A DNA stretch of 56,665 nucleotides. It comes from Chloroflexota bacterium (GTDB lineage: Bacteria > Chloroflexota > UBA6077 > SHYK01). The DNA lies in assembly GCA_016844585.1 (NCBI GenBank), contig JAERMM010000006.1, positions 1-56,665 of the forward strand. The letters are read 5' to 3'. Each line of letters begins with the position of its first letter. Within the stretch, counting starts at the first letter, position 1. The translations under genes and the position numbers were made by a program. Positions 4,138-8,730 of the stretch are shown here, piece by piece. The notes below the pieces were generated by a model. The model was given only the letters and a program-made list of their open reading frames with translations. It did not search any database and had not been told where the DNA came from.

Positions 4138-5024
4138 GACGACGCTCGCGACTCGAACTGGTGATACAGAAGGCTCCAGTCTGCGATTGAGAGAACGCCA
4201 GGGCGCCGGATTGGATCGATTCCCGCATGCCTGGCGGCCTCGAGCACATCAAGGCTCGGAGCCCCAAGCCCTTGCGCGAGTGAGTTGTGGAGCTGCTTGC
4301 GTGGCTGGCTGAATCCCGCCCGAACGAAGGCCAGGAATCGCATGACGTCGTCCACGGGAACCGCTGGGGCAGAGCGGACGTCAAGGCGGACAACCGCCGA
4401 TCGGACCTTTGGCGGCGGGAAGAACGCTCCGGGCGGCACTCGGCGCACTATAGCCGGCACGGCGAGCGTATTCATGGCAGCCCCCAGGTAGGTCAGCGCT
4501 CCGGGCCGCCCGACGACACGGTCGGCAACCTCCTCCTGCAACATCACGACGAGTCGTTGTGGGCGTGGCGGGGCGGTGAGGAGCCGGAACAGGATCGGAG
4601 AAGCCACGTGATAAGGCAGACTCGCAACGACGACGTACGGCTCGTCGATGAGGTCGACCAGGCTGACATGGAGAGCGTCAGCCTGTACAACGCGGAGGTT
4701 CTGGGGCGAGTTGAGCCGAGAGGCGAGCGAAGATGCCAGGGAGGCGTCCAGCTCGACGCCGACCACAGAGCGAGCAGCGGTCAGGAGGAGCTCAGTGAGG
4801 ATGCCGAACCCCGGCCCGATTTCCAGAACGTCATCCTGCGAGGAATTGAGGTCAGCAGCCTGGACCATGGAGCGCGCGACGGCGGGGTCGGCGAGGAACG
4901 ATTGCGAGAGGCCCCTTTTGGGGAAAGCCCCTGACTCGCGAAGGAGCTTTCGAGGGTGCCTACCCGTGGACGTGTTCGCCGACCCGCCGGCTCTGAAGCT
5001 CCGCATCGACACTGACGAAAGCAA
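4134..5024 (-). CDS. rsmA: 16S rRNA (adenine1518/1519-N6)-dimethyltransferase
   Basis: SQSFLADP, SAM motif VLEIGPGFGILTELL and SLPYHVASPILF. Start uncertain: TTG 5024 or ATG 5006. Confidence 0.85.
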   Translation of the reverse strand: MLSSVSMRSFRAGGSANTSTGRHPRKLLRESGAFPKRGLSQSFLADPAVARSMVQAADLNSSQDDVLEIGPGFGILTELLLTAARSVVGVELDASLASSLASRLNSPQNLRVVQADALHVSLVDLIDEPYVVVASLPYHVASPILFRLLTAPPRPQRLVVMLQEEVADRVVGRPGALTYLGAAMNTLAVPAIVRRVPPGAFFPPPKVRSAVVRLDVRSAPAVPVDDVMRFLAFVRAGFSQPRKQLHNSLAQGLGAPSLDVLEAARHAGIDPIRRPGVLSIADWSLLYHQFESRASS

Positions 5025-5030
5025 GGTTGC

Positions 5031-5302
5031 GGCCGTGCACCTGTCGTCGATCGCAACGCTCCCCGCGTCTCCCCGACTGGTCAGCTACGGCCCGGCGCCC
5101 CTGCGGCACCCAGGGAGCACTGTTTACCGTTGCTTCCTCCCGGACCTGGCGGGGTTCACAGGTCACTGCCGCGCAGGACCGAACCATCAACGCCACCTGG
5201 CCGGGAACTGGCCGGACAGCGCCGGACCTCGGACAGGAATTCAGCCCCGCTAGAGCGGATTGTGGGTTCAGGGCACCGCTAGCTCCCCGCCTAGCACGAC
5301 CG
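5031..5302 (-). ncRNA. ffs: Signal recognition particle RNA, long (Bacillus-type, with Alu domain)
   Basis: The reverse complement reads GTCGTGCTAGGCGGGGAGCTAGCGGTGCCCTG...AATCCGCTCTAGCGGGGC (Alu-domain-like 5' part). It continues ...GTGAACCCCGCCAGGTCCGGGAGGAAGCAACGG...GGTGCCGCAGGGGCGCCGGGCCGTAGCTGACC...CGACAGGTGCACGGCC. This matches the domain IV core (GGUCCGGAAGGAAGCAGC-like) and the overall order of B. subtilis scRNA as I remember it. The 5' GGTCGTGC pairs with the 3' GCACGGCC. Ends are approximate. Confidence 0.8.
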
Positions 5303-5308
5303 CGATCA

Positions 5309-5338
5309 ATTCTAGAAGCGGTCAGGATCCTGAGTCAA
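5309..5338 (-). promoter_or_regulatory. Candidate sigma-70 promoter of the SRP RNA
   Basis: On the minus strand, TTGACT (5338-5333), an 18-nt spacer, then TAGAAT (5314-5309), about 7 nt upstream of the predicted RNA 5' end. Confidence 0.4.
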
Positions 5339-5382
5339 TGGCTCGGTGGGACCATCCTGCAAGGCTGAGTTACCCAGCGCGG

Positions 5383-6012
5383 TCAACTGGGGATGAAGAT
5401 CAGGGGTATCAGGATCTCGTCGCCTTCGCTGGGATCGGTCCCTCGGATGCGCAGCAGGGTCACGTCGTCGACGCGGTCCGCGGGGATTGCAACGACGACG
5501 GTGAACGGGCCATGATGGTCCGGACCCGGCATTTCAGCTTTCGTGGACCCCTGGGCGACAAGGGTCCCACCTGGGCCGATCACTTCTACGAAAATAGCGC
5601 CATCTGACGTGGCTGCGGACCCGTCAACGCGAATCGGATTGGAGATCCGCACTGCAGGATCGGGCTCAGTCACGCGAATGTTCAGATTTCGCGACCAGAC
5701 GCCATAGGGAAGAACGAGGGGCTCTGGCGCCGGAAACGCGGCGTCCGGAGGGAACGGGTTCATGCCTACGAGCTCCTCGACACGGATCCCGAACCGCTCG
5801 GCGAGGAGCGTCAGTGTCTCGCCAGGTTTCGCTGTATAGCGGGCTCCAACGGGACTGCGAGGGGGCGATATGGAGAAAAGATCGTCGTCCACCGACGGCG
5901 TCGGCTGCGGACTTGGCCGCAGAGTCGGGGTGGGTGGTTGGGTTGGCTGGGTGGGAAGCGAGCATGCGCCTATGAGAAGCAGGACGATTGCGAGCGTGAT
6001 GATAGTGCGCAT
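5383..6012 (-). CDS. LysM domain lipoprotein with C-terminal Ig-like (Gmad2-like, tentative) domain
   Basis: Signal peptide with lipobox LLIGAC, Pro/Thr-rich linker, LysM segment YTAKPGETLTLLAERFGIRVEELVGMNPF, and a beta-rich C-terminal domain. Confidence 0.7.
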   Translation of the reverse strand: MRTIITLAIVLLLIGACSLPTQPTQPPTPTLRPSPQPTPSVDDDLFSISPPRSPVGARYTAKPGETLTLLAERFGIRVEELVGMNPFPPDAAFPAPEPLVLPYGVWSRNLNIRVTEPDPAVRISNPIRVDGSAATSDGAIFVEVIGPGGTLVAQGSTKAEMPGPDHHGPFTVVVAIPADRVDDVTLLRIRGTDPSEGDEILIPLIFIPS

Positions 6013-6040: not shown

Positions 6041-6066
6041 GGCGGAGAGGGTGGGATTCGAACCCA
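6041..6066 (-). repeat. Orphan copy of tRNA-Ser 3' end (T-stem to CC), putative distal att core
   Basis: GGCGGAGAGGGTGGGATTCGAACCCA is identical to 7674-7699. Identity stops at tRNA position 49. No matching 5' acceptor strand (CCTCTCC on the plus strand) lies within 150 nt, so this is a fragment and not a gene. Confidence 0.85.
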
Positions 6067-6100
6067 GGTGCCGCCCACGGGAGTTTACCATGATCCGCAT

Positions 6101-6130
6101 TAGGCACGAATCGTCTTTCGAGCGCGCTGA
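6101..6130. repeat. Arm motif A, copy 1 (TAGGCACGAA-TCGTCTTTCGAGCG)
   Basis: 34 nt inside the left core. Aligns with 7631-7665 (10-nt exact core plus about 13 further matches with small gaps). Confidence 0.4.
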
Positions 6131-6159
6131 CGGTCCAACAAAACCCGCGATTATCCGTC

Positions 6160-6172
6160 CCCGTTGCTACAC
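6160..6172. repeat. Arm motif B, copy 1 (CCCGTTGCTACAC)
   Basis: Exact 13-mer shared with 7575-7587. GCTACAC is repeated again 6 nt downstream. Confidence 0.4.
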
Positions 6173-6200
6173 ACGTCTGCTACACGGAATCGACTACCCG

Positions 6201-6497
6201 TCACCGCCCCGAAAGCGCCGCCTGCTCGCCGCGACGAACAGCTTCCAGCTTGTAATGTGCTGCCAGGTCTGCCGACGCGCCGTCGTAGAGCACCTTCTTG
6301 ATGTACACTTGGTAAGGCAAGCCTTGGATGCGAGCTGCTTCTTTCACGATGGTCAGTTGTTCAGCGCCCCAACGAAAGTTCACGCGCACCTGAGCGCCCT
6401 CTTGCTCGGCGTCGCGTTCGGCTTCCTTCAGCATGCCGAGGATATCCGCATCGCTCTCCTCACCCACCCCCAATACCTTGACCTCGTATTTGCTCAT
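6201..6497 (-). CDS. Ribbon-helix-helix antitoxin-like protein (BrnA/CopG type)
   Basis: 98-aa ORF. The C-terminal part VNFRWGAEQLTIVKEAARIQGLPYQVYIKKVL fits the strand-helix-helix pattern and the G-(I/L)-P-Y-Q motif of BrnA-type antitoxins (family recalled from memory). Its ATG overlaps the stop of an upstream small gene (ATGA). Confidence 0.55.
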   Translation of the reverse strand: MSKYEVKVLGVGEESDADILGMLKEAERDAEQEGAQVRVNFRWGAEQLTIVKEAARIQGLPYQVYIKKVLYDGASADLAAHYKLEAVRRGEQAALSGR

Positions 6498-6822
6498 TCC
6501 CTTCCCTCCTGCAGCTCAAAGCATGACAACACGATGACTGTGCTACCTTCCCGCCCATGCAGCCATGCCCAGAACAGCACGCGCTGACCGAGTCTGCTCT
6601 CAAACCGCCGCCGCCGCTCGTTCCAGTTCCGCTCGCCCTCGAAGAACAGAGCGACCGCGTCTTCCGCTGTCACCCGTGTCGCGAATGGACATGCAAGACA
6701 CCCGACTGGTCGCGATCAAAGTACAAGCGAAAGCGCTGCCCATTGACTTCGACCTCGACAAAGTCTGTCCGCACAGTGGCACTGTAGCATTTCTGGATGC
6801 ACAGCAGCCATACATGAGCCAC
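6494..6822 (-). pseudogene. BrnT/DUF497-like toxin gene, disrupted by a frameshift
   Basis: Two consecutive minus-strand frames. The first reads ...VEVEVNGQRFRLYFDRDQSGVLHVHSRHG* (stop 6672-6670). The second reads VTAEDAVALFFEGERNWNERRRRFESRLGQRVLFWAWLHGREGSTVIVLSCFEL... (6673-6494). Joined, ...SRHGVTAEDAVALFF resembles the KHGVsFeEA..vF core of DUF497. The gene sits upstream of the antitoxin and overlaps it, as in brnTA. Confidence 0.3.
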
Positions 6823-7574
6823 CGCACGGGGCTTTCGATGGCGATTTGAGAAGTGGGCGAAATGCCGATTCAGGCACAGCAGTTGCGCCTTTCGGGGCGA
6901 TCAGCAGAAAAAGGGCGGAGACAAGATAATCGACGCTTTCGTGCCCTATGCCACCAAGGTTCTAGCCGTGGCGATGTGGCCCGATGCGAGTGAGCAATTC
7001 CAACAGAATGTGGCACTAGGGAGAGTCAGGCCAACTTCAATCAAGCGCAAGGCGAATATGGCCCCTGCCAAGTATGGTTTTCCGATGACTCGTCCGATGC
7101 CGAGGAAGGTTTTCCCAAGGCACTCGCGTCCCGGCTTTACCAAAATATCGCAAGGTCTCTTGGGGGCGAGCCTCAGGACCTATACCCGGTCGTGGTTACT
7201 ATCTTGCAGGAGCGCACGGTAGCGATGGACCTGGACACCAAAGTGAGAGCGATGGACAGCTCCCTAACGTAGAGGATCGACGGGCTCGGGGTGGCTGTCA
7301 CCCGGTTCGGCCTCGATGAGGCCAGCGCAAGACCGATCAGCCCGGTTTGCCTCGCTGGCAACCGTGGGCGTGGGCTGCGCCCTCTCGCGTCAAGGGTTCC
7401 GCTGCGCTCTGATGAACTCGGCGGAAGCTCGCCCTTGACTCGACTCACCCCTTCTTTCTTTCCCGGTATCCCTGGCCTGGGAGGCCAAGCGTTCTTCTAC
7501 AGGACGGTCGACGACTACAGTCCAGAGCACACTTCCGCGCACGCCAACGGACCATCTGGGGGACTCGCGACGCT

Positions 7575-7587
7575 CCCGTTGCTACAC
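7575..7587. repeat. Arm motif B, copy 2
   Basis: CCCGTTGCTACAC, identical to 6160-6172. Confidence 0.4.
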
Positions 7588-7593
7588 CGGCTT

Positions 7594-7616
7594 AAAACAG
7601 CCCACTTGAGGGGCTG
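7594..7616 (-). terminator. Candidate intrinsic terminator downstream of tRNA-Ser
   Basis: Minus strand CAGCCC-CTCAAGT-GGGCTG followed by TTTT, about 57 nt after the tRNA 3' end. Short stem and short T-tract, so weak. Confidence 0.35.
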
Positions 7617-7630
7617 TCAAAACACCGGTC

Positions 7631-7665
7631 TAGGCACGAAAATCGCCCTTTTCGGAGCGATAAGG
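7631..7665. repeat. Arm motif A, copy 2 (TAGGCACGAAAATCGCCCTTTTCGGAGCG)
   Basis: The 10-nt exact core (7631-7640) ends 33 nt before the right core. Aligns with 6101-6130. Confidence 0.4.
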
Positions 7666-7672
7666 AGAAAAA

Positions 7673-7760
7673 TGGCGGAGAGGGTGGGATTCGAACCCAC
7701 GAGGCGTTGCCGCCTACTCGCTTTCCAGGCGAGCGCCCTAGGCCACTAGGCGACCTCTCC
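7673..7760 (-). tRNA. tRNA-Ser (anticodon GGA), CCA encoded
   Basis: The reverse complement folds as acceptor GGAGAGG/CCTCTCC, 3-bp D stem, anticodon arm CTCGC-CTGGAAA-GCGAG, long variable arm (GGCG/CGCC stem), T arm GTGGG-TTCGAAT-CCCAC, then G-CCA. Confidence 0.95.
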
Positions 7761-7860: not shown

Positions 7861-8730
7861 ATGGTTGCAACCTTGAGTATCGCGCTGCCGAAGCGTGCAA
7901 CATGCCATCCAGCTGCTTACCGAAGCTGGGGACGGCGCCAAGATCCTCGCGGGCGGCCAGAGCCTCGTTCCATTATTCAACCTCGGGCTGGCTCGTCCAT
8001 CGGTGCTGATCGATATCAATAGGCTCGACACTTTGGACTACATTGAGCAGCGGAACGGGTCAATCGCCGTTGGCGCTCTCACCAGACACGCGACCGCCGA
8101 GGCAAGTGACCTACTGCACGCTGCTTGTCCTCTTCTGGCTGAGGCGATACCGATGATTGGCGACCCTCAGGTGCGAAACCGCGGGTCGGTGGGCGGCAGC
8201 CTGGCACACGCCGATCCCGTTGCCGAGATCCCGACGTTGCGGTCTGTCTGGGTGCCGTGATGCACATCGAAGGCCCGCACGGAGGCCGCGACGTCGAGGC
8301 GTCCGAATTCTTCGACACCTACCTCACGTCCTCGCTCGAGGCCGGCGAATTATTGACTGAGGTGCGATTCCCTTCTGCTCCACCGGGAGCCGGAGCGGCA
8401 TTTCTCGAGCTGGTCCGCCGGAAGGGTGACTTCGCGATCTTCGCCGCGGCGGCTTCCGTTGAAATGGGCGGCGACGGCGCATGCAAGGGGGCTCGCCTGG
8501 CGTTGGCCGGCGTGTCCGACACGCCGATCCGCTGCGACGCACCGTCGGCAATCCTGGTCGGCCGCGTTCCGACGGCGGAGTTGTTGCGCGAGGCGGCGAG
8601 TGCCGCTTGTGAAGGGATCGAACCCGAGTCTGACGTCCTGGCATCGGGGGAGTACCGCCGGGCTATGGCTCCCGTCTACGCGCGTCGGGCGCTCGCATCC
8701 GCGGTGGCCCGGGCAACCACTCAGTCCTGA
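7861..8730 (+). pseudogene. CoxM-type FAD-binding (medium) subunit of a molybdopterin dehydrogenase, frameshifted and orphan
   Basis: Homology runs through three frames: NLEYRAAEA, then VQHAIQLLTEAGDGAKILAGGQSLVPL...VRNRGSVGGSLAHADPVAEIP, then DVAVCLGAVMHIEGPHGGRDVEASEFF...SGEYRRAMAPVYARRAL. Frame breaks lie near 7893-7897 and 8230-8236. No large (CoxL) or small (CoxS) subunit gene is adjacent. Confidence 0.8.

Follow-up and report, generated by a model that had tools for sequence, protein, structure and literature searches.

A probable accretion of two miniature integrase-less integrative elements at tRNA-Ser(GGA) in a Chloroflexota genome

How a segment bounded by two copies of a tRNA end came to lie in a chromosome without an integrase of its own is the question raised by a 56,665-nucleotide stretch of Chloroflexota DNA (contig JAERMM010000006.1 of assembly GCA_016844585.1; hereafter the window), in which the 3' end of a tRNA-Ser(GGA) gene is present twice. 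The genome, labelled G000, is a 3.85-Mb, 443-contig metagenome-assembled genome (MAG) of the Chloroflexi and is 80% complete. It is argued here that the segment 6041-7699 probably arose by accretion, two miniature integrative elements without an integrase having inserted one behind the other in the 3' end of this tRNA gene. They are called E1 (6041-6921, about 0.88 kb, made up of a distal attachment (att) arm, a toxin-antitoxin-like operon and a proximal arm) and E2, of which a remnant is left at 6922-7673.

The insertion at tRNA-Ser(GGA) and its two-element structure

The 26-mer GGCGGAGAGGGTGGGATTCGAACCCA occurs exactly at 6041-6066 and again at 7674-7699, where it forms the last 26 nt of the tRNA gene and thus the proximal att core. 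No such match was produced in any of 100 shuffles, and a genome-wide search of the 3.85 Mb allowing up to two mismatches recovered no further copy, so that the duplication described in the initial annotation is both real and unique. Its reading as a scar of integration is borne out by comparison of the locus in related genomes, which that annotation had proposed as a check. The sister genera G003 and G005 carry an empty site, with the gene order signal recognition particle (SRP) RNA, LysM/Gmad2 gene, tRNA-Ser and CoxM-like gene, and with the tRNA-Ser 3' end directly beside the LysM/Gmad2 gene (a few to about 35 nt). The displaced 26-nt copy in the window occupies the same place as the intact tRNA end of G003 and G005, 28 nt from the ATG of the LysM/Gmad2 gene (6012), and the intact tRNA lies 1.63 kb away from it. 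Such a pair of empty and occupied sites is as expected for integration into a tRNA 3' end, and the 1.6 kb enclosed by the duplicated tRNA-Ser(GGA) 3' end has indeed been inserted site-specifically.

A reading in which nothing mobile is involved would instead see a local duplication of the tRNA 3' end and its trailer, i.e., a decaying second tRNA-Ser, with motifs that arose by chance or serve regulation, GTTGCTACAC being a promoter or operator near tRNA genes and not a recombination site. The 45-nt trailer with its hairpin does resemble the tRNA-Ser trailer of G006, which is free of any element, but the identity falls off sharply after 26 of 26 nt with no gradual decay, and the empty sites of G003 and G005 also speak against a duplication in place. 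This reading is considered very improbable, and the repeats and cargo described below bear on it further.

The initial annotation assigned both ends of the segment to one attP. This could not be maintained, as a third partial copy of the arm, which it had overlooked, lies at 6846-6921; none of 1000 shuffles reached its alignment score (z about 11). The copy ends at 6914-6921 in GGCGGAGA, the first 8 nt of the core, which makes this point a truncated att site at the junction of E1 and E2. Homologues of the 98-aa protein encoded in E1 led to metagenome contigs bearing the same locus, and three of these (L084, L085 and L086) have E1 only, about 0.85 kb long and joined directly to an intact tRNA, without an integrase. 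Their order is tRNA-Ser, a short arm (CTAGGCACAAAATCG and a hairpin), a 93-aa gene, the 98-aa gene, one B unit (motif B, below), motif A, spacer and a 19-nt copy of the core. From the start of the gene labelled brnT through 6846-6921 to GGCGGAGA, the window is collinear with L084 and L086; past GGCGGAGA the sequence runs into the intact tRNA in the latter two and into unrelated sequence in the window. This collinearity identifies 6846-6921 as the original tRNA-proximal junction of E1, and the comparison shows that the left arm belongs to E1 and the right arm to a later element, E2, so that two elements are present and not one.

In the proposed sequence of events, E1 would have integrated first and E2 would later have entered the reconstituted tRNA end, between the tRNA and E1, which is the order expected for accretion (PMC5704250). 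A deletion would then have removed the distal arm of E2 together with 18 nt of the junction core, leaving 8 nt.

Copies elsewhere vary in their arrangement. Integrase-less E1 is found at this tRNA in no fewer than four further divergent hosts: in L080 it stands behind a different 230-nt remnant with a B-like pair, and in L081 and L094 the E1 genes are followed by a second module. G004 carries an E2 of about 1.1 kb, both arms of which have double B units and motif A, with a conserved 100-nt non-coding block and a cargo (a weak DUF5678 match and a clan AA aspartic-protease-like protein) that differs from the E1 module; a fragment of the E1 toxin-like gene follows it. The two modules stand in opposite order in G004 and L081. 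In G007 the conserved block lies where a contig ends.

Putative arm-type sites and a tRNA-targeting integrase family

The distal arm of E1 consists of core, spacer, motif A and a GTTGCTACA repeat pair, and the spacers of other E1 copies are homologues of its own (6067-6100), with indels between them. Two motifs recur beside both outer cores in the same orientation, at the places and distances given in the initial annotation: motif A, TAGGCACGAA, at 6101 and 7631 (34 and 33 nt from the cores), and motif B, CCCGTTGCTACAC, at 6160 and 7575 (93 and 86 nt). The 13-mer of motif B is found at these two places only in the genome and the 10-mer of motif A seven times, which is chance level, so that neither is a common dispersed repeat, an outcome that had been named as a point against the annotation.

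The meaning of motif B emerges from a family of tyrosine integrases (Pfam Phage_int_SAM_3 and Phage_integrase) that target tRNA genes; 47 of the 66 class genomes have members of it, up to 12 copies apiece. In the class, tandem pairs of GTTGCTACAC or similar 9-10-mers with a period of 11-12 nt lie between the integrase stop codon and the tRNA 3' end. Thirty loci were fetched, of which 23 included a tRNA, and in 19 of these a 7-mer is repeated in tandem, at 10-12-nt spacing, no more than 230 nt downstream of the tRNA 3' end. The repeat sequence varies by integrase (e.g., TGGCTGTCAA, TTTGCGGTCA, TTGGGGTCAA and GATTGCAGTAC), which fits specific arm sites rather than a shared promoter.

The repeat of the window is itself met in this setting. 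Exact GTTGCTACA pairs lie between the integrase stop codon and the 3' end of a convergent tRNA in G013 (tRNA-Leu(CAA)) and G057 (tRNA-Arg(GCG)), and a 9-mer scan found the same placement in G014 (tRNA-Leu(TAA)) and G028 (tRNA-Leu(TAG)). The pattern CCGTTGCTACA-N4-7-TGCTAC has eight matches in the 66 class genomes against none for the reversed control; outside the window and G004, four of five are within about 80 nt of a tRNA gene of other identity and the fifth is about 92 nt from a tRNA-Arg fragment. In G057 the proximal pair stands beside the integrase, 69 nt before the tRNA-Arg end, whilst the far end of the element, on a second contig, carries 45 nt of displaced tRNA-Arg sequence, with an identically oriented copy of the pair about 92 nt further on. 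This core-to-B geometry is that of the left end of the insertion in the window; a repeat pair (6160-6185) and a single unit (7575-7587) are associated with the tRNA-derived cores at its left and right ends, respectively, and the B-core-B layout proposed in the initial annotation is thereby matched at both ends of an integrase-bearing element.

These comparisons support the view that motif B (GTTGCTACAC) is a putative arm-type recombinase site. The att sites of both elements would thus be of the type used by the tRNA-targeting integrase family common in the class, and the integrase would bind direct repeats of 9-10 nt, paired within the arms, with crossing-over in the core derived from the tRNA. 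The repeats also tell on the local-duplication alternative introduced above: a repeat pair is found upstream of a complete tRNA in G021 and G037, as a promoter or operator might be, but pairs also follow immediately upon integrase stop codons and mark each end of the element in G057, and a repeat sequence particular to each integrase is expected of arm sites and not of a shared promoter.

For motif A, the other proposed arm-type site, such a role is unproven. The left copy is probably functional, as it is nearly invariant among the element copies, and integrase binding, binding of an accessory factor and a duplicated terminator are all candidates. The trailer hairpin that the right copy overlaps is kept in G004, L081 and L084. 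The hairpins listed in Table 1 were read by eye and were not flagged by a strict scan for promoters and terminators.

Several observations were made alongside. The element-free tRNA-Ser trailer of G006 (L030, G006:C3, 8408-8470) resembles the tRNA-proximal arm of the elements, with a hairpin and a T run, which suggests that their attP arm may once have been captured from a host tRNA-Ser trailer. An inverted A-like motif, TTCGTGCCCTATGC, lies at 6931-6951 (compared with the reverse complement of 6097-6110), inside the E2 remnant and beside the truncated junction core. The integrase of the best autonomous comparator, G057 (L041, G057:C387, about 2580-2600), is broken by a 1-nt frameshift in a run of C, either because it is a pseudogene or through an error in the MAG. 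G013 (L040, G013:C49, 1-13300) likewise has a frameshifted integrase of this family, with the tRNA-Leu(CAA)/repeat arm on one side and a long-array type I CRISPR-Cas locus on the other, an arrangement that looks like a defence island at a tRNA site.

Table 1. Features of the insertion and its flanks (window coordinates; a dot denotes no strand)
Feature	Position	Strand	Basis or comparison
LysM/Gmad2 lipoprotein gene, chromosomal flank	5383-6012	-	Pfam Gmad2 and LysM matches; synteny
Displaced tRNA-Ser 3' end, distal att core of E1	6041-6066	.	26/26 identical to 7674-7699
Element-derived spacer, residual similarity to tRNA variable arm (GGTGCCGCCCAC vs GTTGCCGCCTAC)	6067-6100	.	Sequence reading
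Motif A, left copy, TAGGCACGAATCGTCTTTCGAGCGC	6101-6125	+	Nearly invariant in G004, L084, L094
Putative arm-type site pair, distal arm, CCCGTTGCTACAC ACG TCTGCTACAC	6160-6185	+	Same pair in distal arms of G004, L094, G057
Intact gene for 98-aa RHH/CopG-like, antitoxin-like protein (brnA-like)	6201-6497	-	Weak PF12441 match
Partner (toxin-like) gene, 1-nt deletion leading to TGA at 6670-6672	6494-6822	-	Intact (91-93 aa) in L080, L084
E1 tRNA-proximal arm (terminator-like hairpin, A-like motif) ending in GGCGGAGA	6846-6921	+	71% identical to 7606-7681
E2 orphan stretch, lower G+C (55-59%), no family-matching ORF	6922-7380	.	Holds inverted A-like motif 6931-6951
E2 block, conserved and non-coding, bearing the imperfect inverted repeat GTCAAGGG...CCCTTGAC	7381-7480	.	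84-85% identical in G004, G007
Putative arm-type site, tRNA-proximal arm, single unit	7575-7587	+	Two units in G004; 13-nt gap in window
Terminator-like hairpin ACAGCCC..GGGCTGT then TTTT	7592-7617	-	Sequence reading; not flagged by strict scan
Motif A, right copy, overlapping tRNA trailer hairpin (TCGCTC/GGGCGA and T run, minus strand)	7631-7660	+	Sequence reading
Intact tRNA-Ser(GGA)	7673-7760	-	ARAGORN; Rfam tRNA 58.5 bits

Cargo and spread between hosts

The two small genes of E1 had been annotated as a BrnTA-like pair. That they form a pair is upheld, as they overlap by 4 nt in the window, L080 and L084, but the assignment to the BrnT family (PF04365) is not: the intact 93-aa homologue of the partner gene has no sequence match in Pfam, NCBIfam or PDB, and its AF2 model (pLDDT 63) has no Foldseek fold match at E <= 0.001. 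The 98-aa protein matches PF12441 at E = 0.0015 and 19.7 bits, below the 28-bit cut-off, and has 38 homologues with up to 91% identity, one of which is named CopG/RHH by JGI. Homologues of this antitoxin-like protein at about 70% identity are found in unrelated chromosomal contexts, without the tRNA or the core. The two-gene module probably stabilises the islet.

Two kinds of sequence were found in the E2 remnant. The stretch 6922-7380 matches nothing, as nucleotides or translated, in the genome or in the loci fetched, whilst the block 7381-7480 has copies at L017 5271-5367 and L018 3596-3714, the three genera concerned having housekeeping genes that are about 67% identical. A pattern scan of GTDB for the block found G004 and G007 only, and a scan of the JGI metagenomes for it gave no match. 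The block occupies the place held by the integrase gene in autonomous relatives, and in G004 and G007 it is upstream of the first cargo gene. As a structured RNA it has no Rfam match and no covariation (no compensatory pairs), and as a coding region it was rejected, its frame being broken by indels between the three copies. A relic of an integrase in 7381-7575 was likewise rejected (no motif in any frame and no tblastn match), and translations of 7440-7575 contain no integrase motifs.

The block bears on a further alternative, in which the modules would be cassettes moved by an integron integrase through attC-like repeats (7381-7480) or by the host XerCD. Toxin-antitoxin cassettes are common in chromosomal integrons, the block has an imperfect inverted repeat, and the sole tyrosine recombinases in G000 are two Xer-like proteins. 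The ends of the inverted repeat (GTCAAGG / CCTTGAC), however, do not fit the attC R'/R'' consensus (GTTRRRY / RYYYAAC), and an attC identity was ruled out on this core-site consensus alone, no attC model having been applied. Moreover, E1 has no such block, the insertion's boundaries are a direct repeat of tRNA origin, not a dif site, and its arm repeats agree with those found with the tRNA-targeting integrases; neither an IntI gene with attI near the modules nor dif-like sequences at the junctions were seen. A cassette of either kind is therefore barely credible.

A sign of movement between hosts comes from comparing the window with L080, L081 and L084. The host genes rsmA, ispE, mntR and sigA have 48-71% amino-acid identity and 32-45% identity at third codon positions, which is saturated, whereas the 98-aa gene has 85-91% and 74-90%, respectively. 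The second module is 77-87% identical at third codon positions among G004, L081 and L094. The hosts of L080 and L084 are equally diverged from one another (CoxM 68% at the amino-acid level and 40% at third positions). The non-coding arms are 78-88% identical and the G004 pseudogene fragment 92%, against about 67% nucleotide identity for neighbouring housekeeping genes. These comparisons show the cargo to be, as estimated from identity, far younger than the divergence of the hosts, which again disagrees with a local duplication.

As the elements are much younger than the split of their hosts, are always at the same tRNA and share an integrase-less junction, it would be the integrase-less form that moved between hosts, for which a recombinase from elsewhere would be needed. 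The initial annotation compared the segment with the cis-mobilisable elements (CIMEs) of streptococci, a reading for which this is the principal support; with the corrections given for the single attP, motif A and the BrnT label, that annotation is in essence upheld. A family of CIME-like, non-autonomous elements using a recombinase supplied in trans is indirectly supported by the finding of the same integrase-less unit at the same tRNA in hosts that are saturated at synonymous sites. Taken together, these comparisons suggest that the miniature elements form a family that has done well in evolution and are more than one-off debris.

An account with less movement, which we regard as unlikely, holds that the segment is a dead remnant of one or two once-autonomous, integrase-bearing islands at tRNA-Ser, from which the integrase was lost by deletion in each lineage, the integrase-less units never having moved as such. 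CIMEs are classically defined as decay products (PMC5704250), the window copy is clearly decayed (its junction core is cut short, a repeat unit is gone and a gene is frameshifted), the integrases of the relatives G013 and G057 are frameshifted, and no cognate integrase (with a tRNA-Ser core) was found in the 66 class or 401 phylum genomes. All E1 copies seen, however, are without an integrase (the window, L080, L084, L085, L086, L094 and L081), as is the G004 fragment; the integrase-less junction, running from the brnT start through the arm to the core, is common to the window and L084; and the reversed order of modules in G004 and L081 argues for separate insertions. Given also that the hosts are saturated at synonymous sites and the cargo is not, loss of the integrase would have preceded the spread.

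The missing recombinase and relation to known elements

No recombinase and no excisionase was found within 6041-7699 by Pfam searches of the ORFs, tblastn with the integrases of the family or a PF00589 search of the genome, in agreement with the initial annotation. As E1 and E2 encode no recombinase, excision and integration would have to use the integrase of another element, as for streptococcal CIMEs. Such a helper could sit in trans or in tandem. No member of the family was found in the 80%-complete G000, whilst one to nine members are present in all seven other genomes of its taxonomic family. The search proposed earlier for an integrase element with the same core and arm motifs returned none among the matches listed for the class, in the 401 phylum genomes, or in the scans of IMG/VR and JGI metagenomes. 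A second IMG/VR scan found two other tRNA-Ser isoacceptor loci, one of which has an integrase of the same family with a different geometry. At L092 (IMGVR_UViG_3300044703_000142, 4320-5740) three CTGCTACA-type repeats are 65 nt from a tRNA-Ser(CGA), the last 26 nt of which equal the core of the window, and an integrase of the same family (36% identity) is on the other side of the tRNA.

The window copy is eroding. Its toxin-like gene is frameshifted, one B unit of the right arm is lost (the 13-nt gap against G004) and the junction core is truncated; its best-kept feature is the 26/26 identity of the outer cores.

A number of points weigh against the accretion of miniature elements proposed here, which should be considered with these in mind. 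With such marks of decay the window copy may now be immobile, and with a distal core that matches the tRNA over only 19-20 nt in L080, L084 and L094, some copies may never have been good substrates. The proximal arm of E1 has no GTTGCTACA pair. The arm alignment centred on motif A is only mildly unusual (27 of 1000 shuffles reach its score, p about 0.03), and the right motif A overlaps a terminator also present in the element-free G006 trailer. Among the matches listed in the 66 class genomes, no integrase stands beside tRNA-Ser(GGA); a search of the 401 phylum genomes for the repeat with a tRNA-Ser core gave one extra match, chance-like and without an integrase; and a first scan of IMG/VR and a scan of the JGI metagenomes for the proximal arm with the core gave none. 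The absence of the integrase from G000 is itself no proof, as the MAG is 80% complete.

The nearest described counterparts are the CIMEs, which are flanked by attL and attR, have no integration or transfer genes and derive from integrative and conjugative elements (ICEs) of the ICESt1/ICESt3 type and integrative and mobilisable elements (IMEs) of streptococci; they accrete when a newcomer inserts at the att site that carries the target gene's end (PMC5704250). The elements of the window are likewise bounded by attL and attR, devoid of integration and transfer genes and arranged in tandem at the 3' end of their target gene. They differ in being much smaller (about 0.85-1.1 kb, with arms and a two-gene module only), in having a Chloroflexi host and a tRNA gene as target, and in that comparison of genomes points to spread between genera of the integrase-less form as such, something the CIME definition does not include. 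CIMEs are derived by decay from an ICE or IME; all copies of E1 and E2 seen are already integrase-less, and the searches of the class and phylum genomes found no ancestor of either with an integrase.

With the integrase-bearing elements of G057 (tRNA-Arg(GCG)), G014 (tRNA-Leu(TAA)), G028 (tRNA-Leu(TAG)) and G013 (tRNA-Leu(CAA)), the elements of the window share a tRNA-derived core, paired GTTGCTACA-type repeats placed 60-100 nt from the core proximally and about 92 nt distally, and a terminator-like hairpin between the repeats and the tRNA. The former target other tRNAs and have an integrase beside the proximal repeat pair; an integrase beside the tRNA-proximal arm, a trait of autonomous islands, is lacking in the window, where that position is taken by the conserved non-coding block (E2) or the cargo operon (E1).

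Tyrosine integrases of the lambda family and the mycobacteriophage L5 type act on a core located in a tRNA gene and on short arm sites repeated to either side of it; an N-terminal arm-binding domain binds these sites in adjacent pairs. The repeated arm sites flanking the tRNA core here resemble this organisation, from sequence alone. In contrast to the lambda/L5 type, the N-terminal domain of the class integrase family has no Pfam arm-domain match, and the repeat varies with each integrase.

A last comparison is with miniature inverted-repeat transposable elements (MITEs), minimal elements that keep only their cis-acting ends and rely on an enzyme encoded elsewhere, yet spread. The elements described here would do the same, but with the att sites of a tyrosine recombinase instead of the inverted repeats of a transposase, with a single target site and with a small operon as cargo. 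We tentatively suggest, as a possibility falling somewhat short of an even chance, that E1 and E2 are more than debris and belong to a successful family of MITE-like 'mini integrative elements' made of att arms and an addiction-type two-gene module. They would exploit as parasites the abundant Chloroflexi integrases that target tRNA genes, move from genus to genus and accumulate at tRNA-Ser(GGA) in an order that varies.

What is known of non-autonomous integrative elements comes mainly from streptococci, where they are products of decay. In the present case it is the form lacking an integrase that appears to have spread, through uncultured Chloroflexi that are deeply diverged, always at the same tRNA and in arrays whose order depends on the host. 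If this is true, miniature parasites hitch-hike on site-specific integrases much as MITEs do on transposases, and small toxin-antitoxin-like modules can travel with att sites alone. It would also mean that the arm-site code of a large, unstudied integrase family, each member with a 9-10-nt tandem repeat of its own, can be read from genomes and used to pair orphan islets with helper integrases.

Two observations concern the genes on either side of the insertion. The LysM/Gmad2 gene, which starts a few to about 35 nt from the tRNA end in relatives, is probably co-transcribed with tRNA-Ser there; in the window it now lies behind the same-strand operon of E1 and the displaced tRNA end, and its transcription may thus depend on the element. 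Right beside the integration site, two consecutive ORFs (7895-8260 and 8257-8730) together make up the CoxM-like FAD-binding subunit, where the syntenic contigs L080 and L084 have a single ORF of 289-299 aa, and this split reflects either a frameshift or an assembly error.

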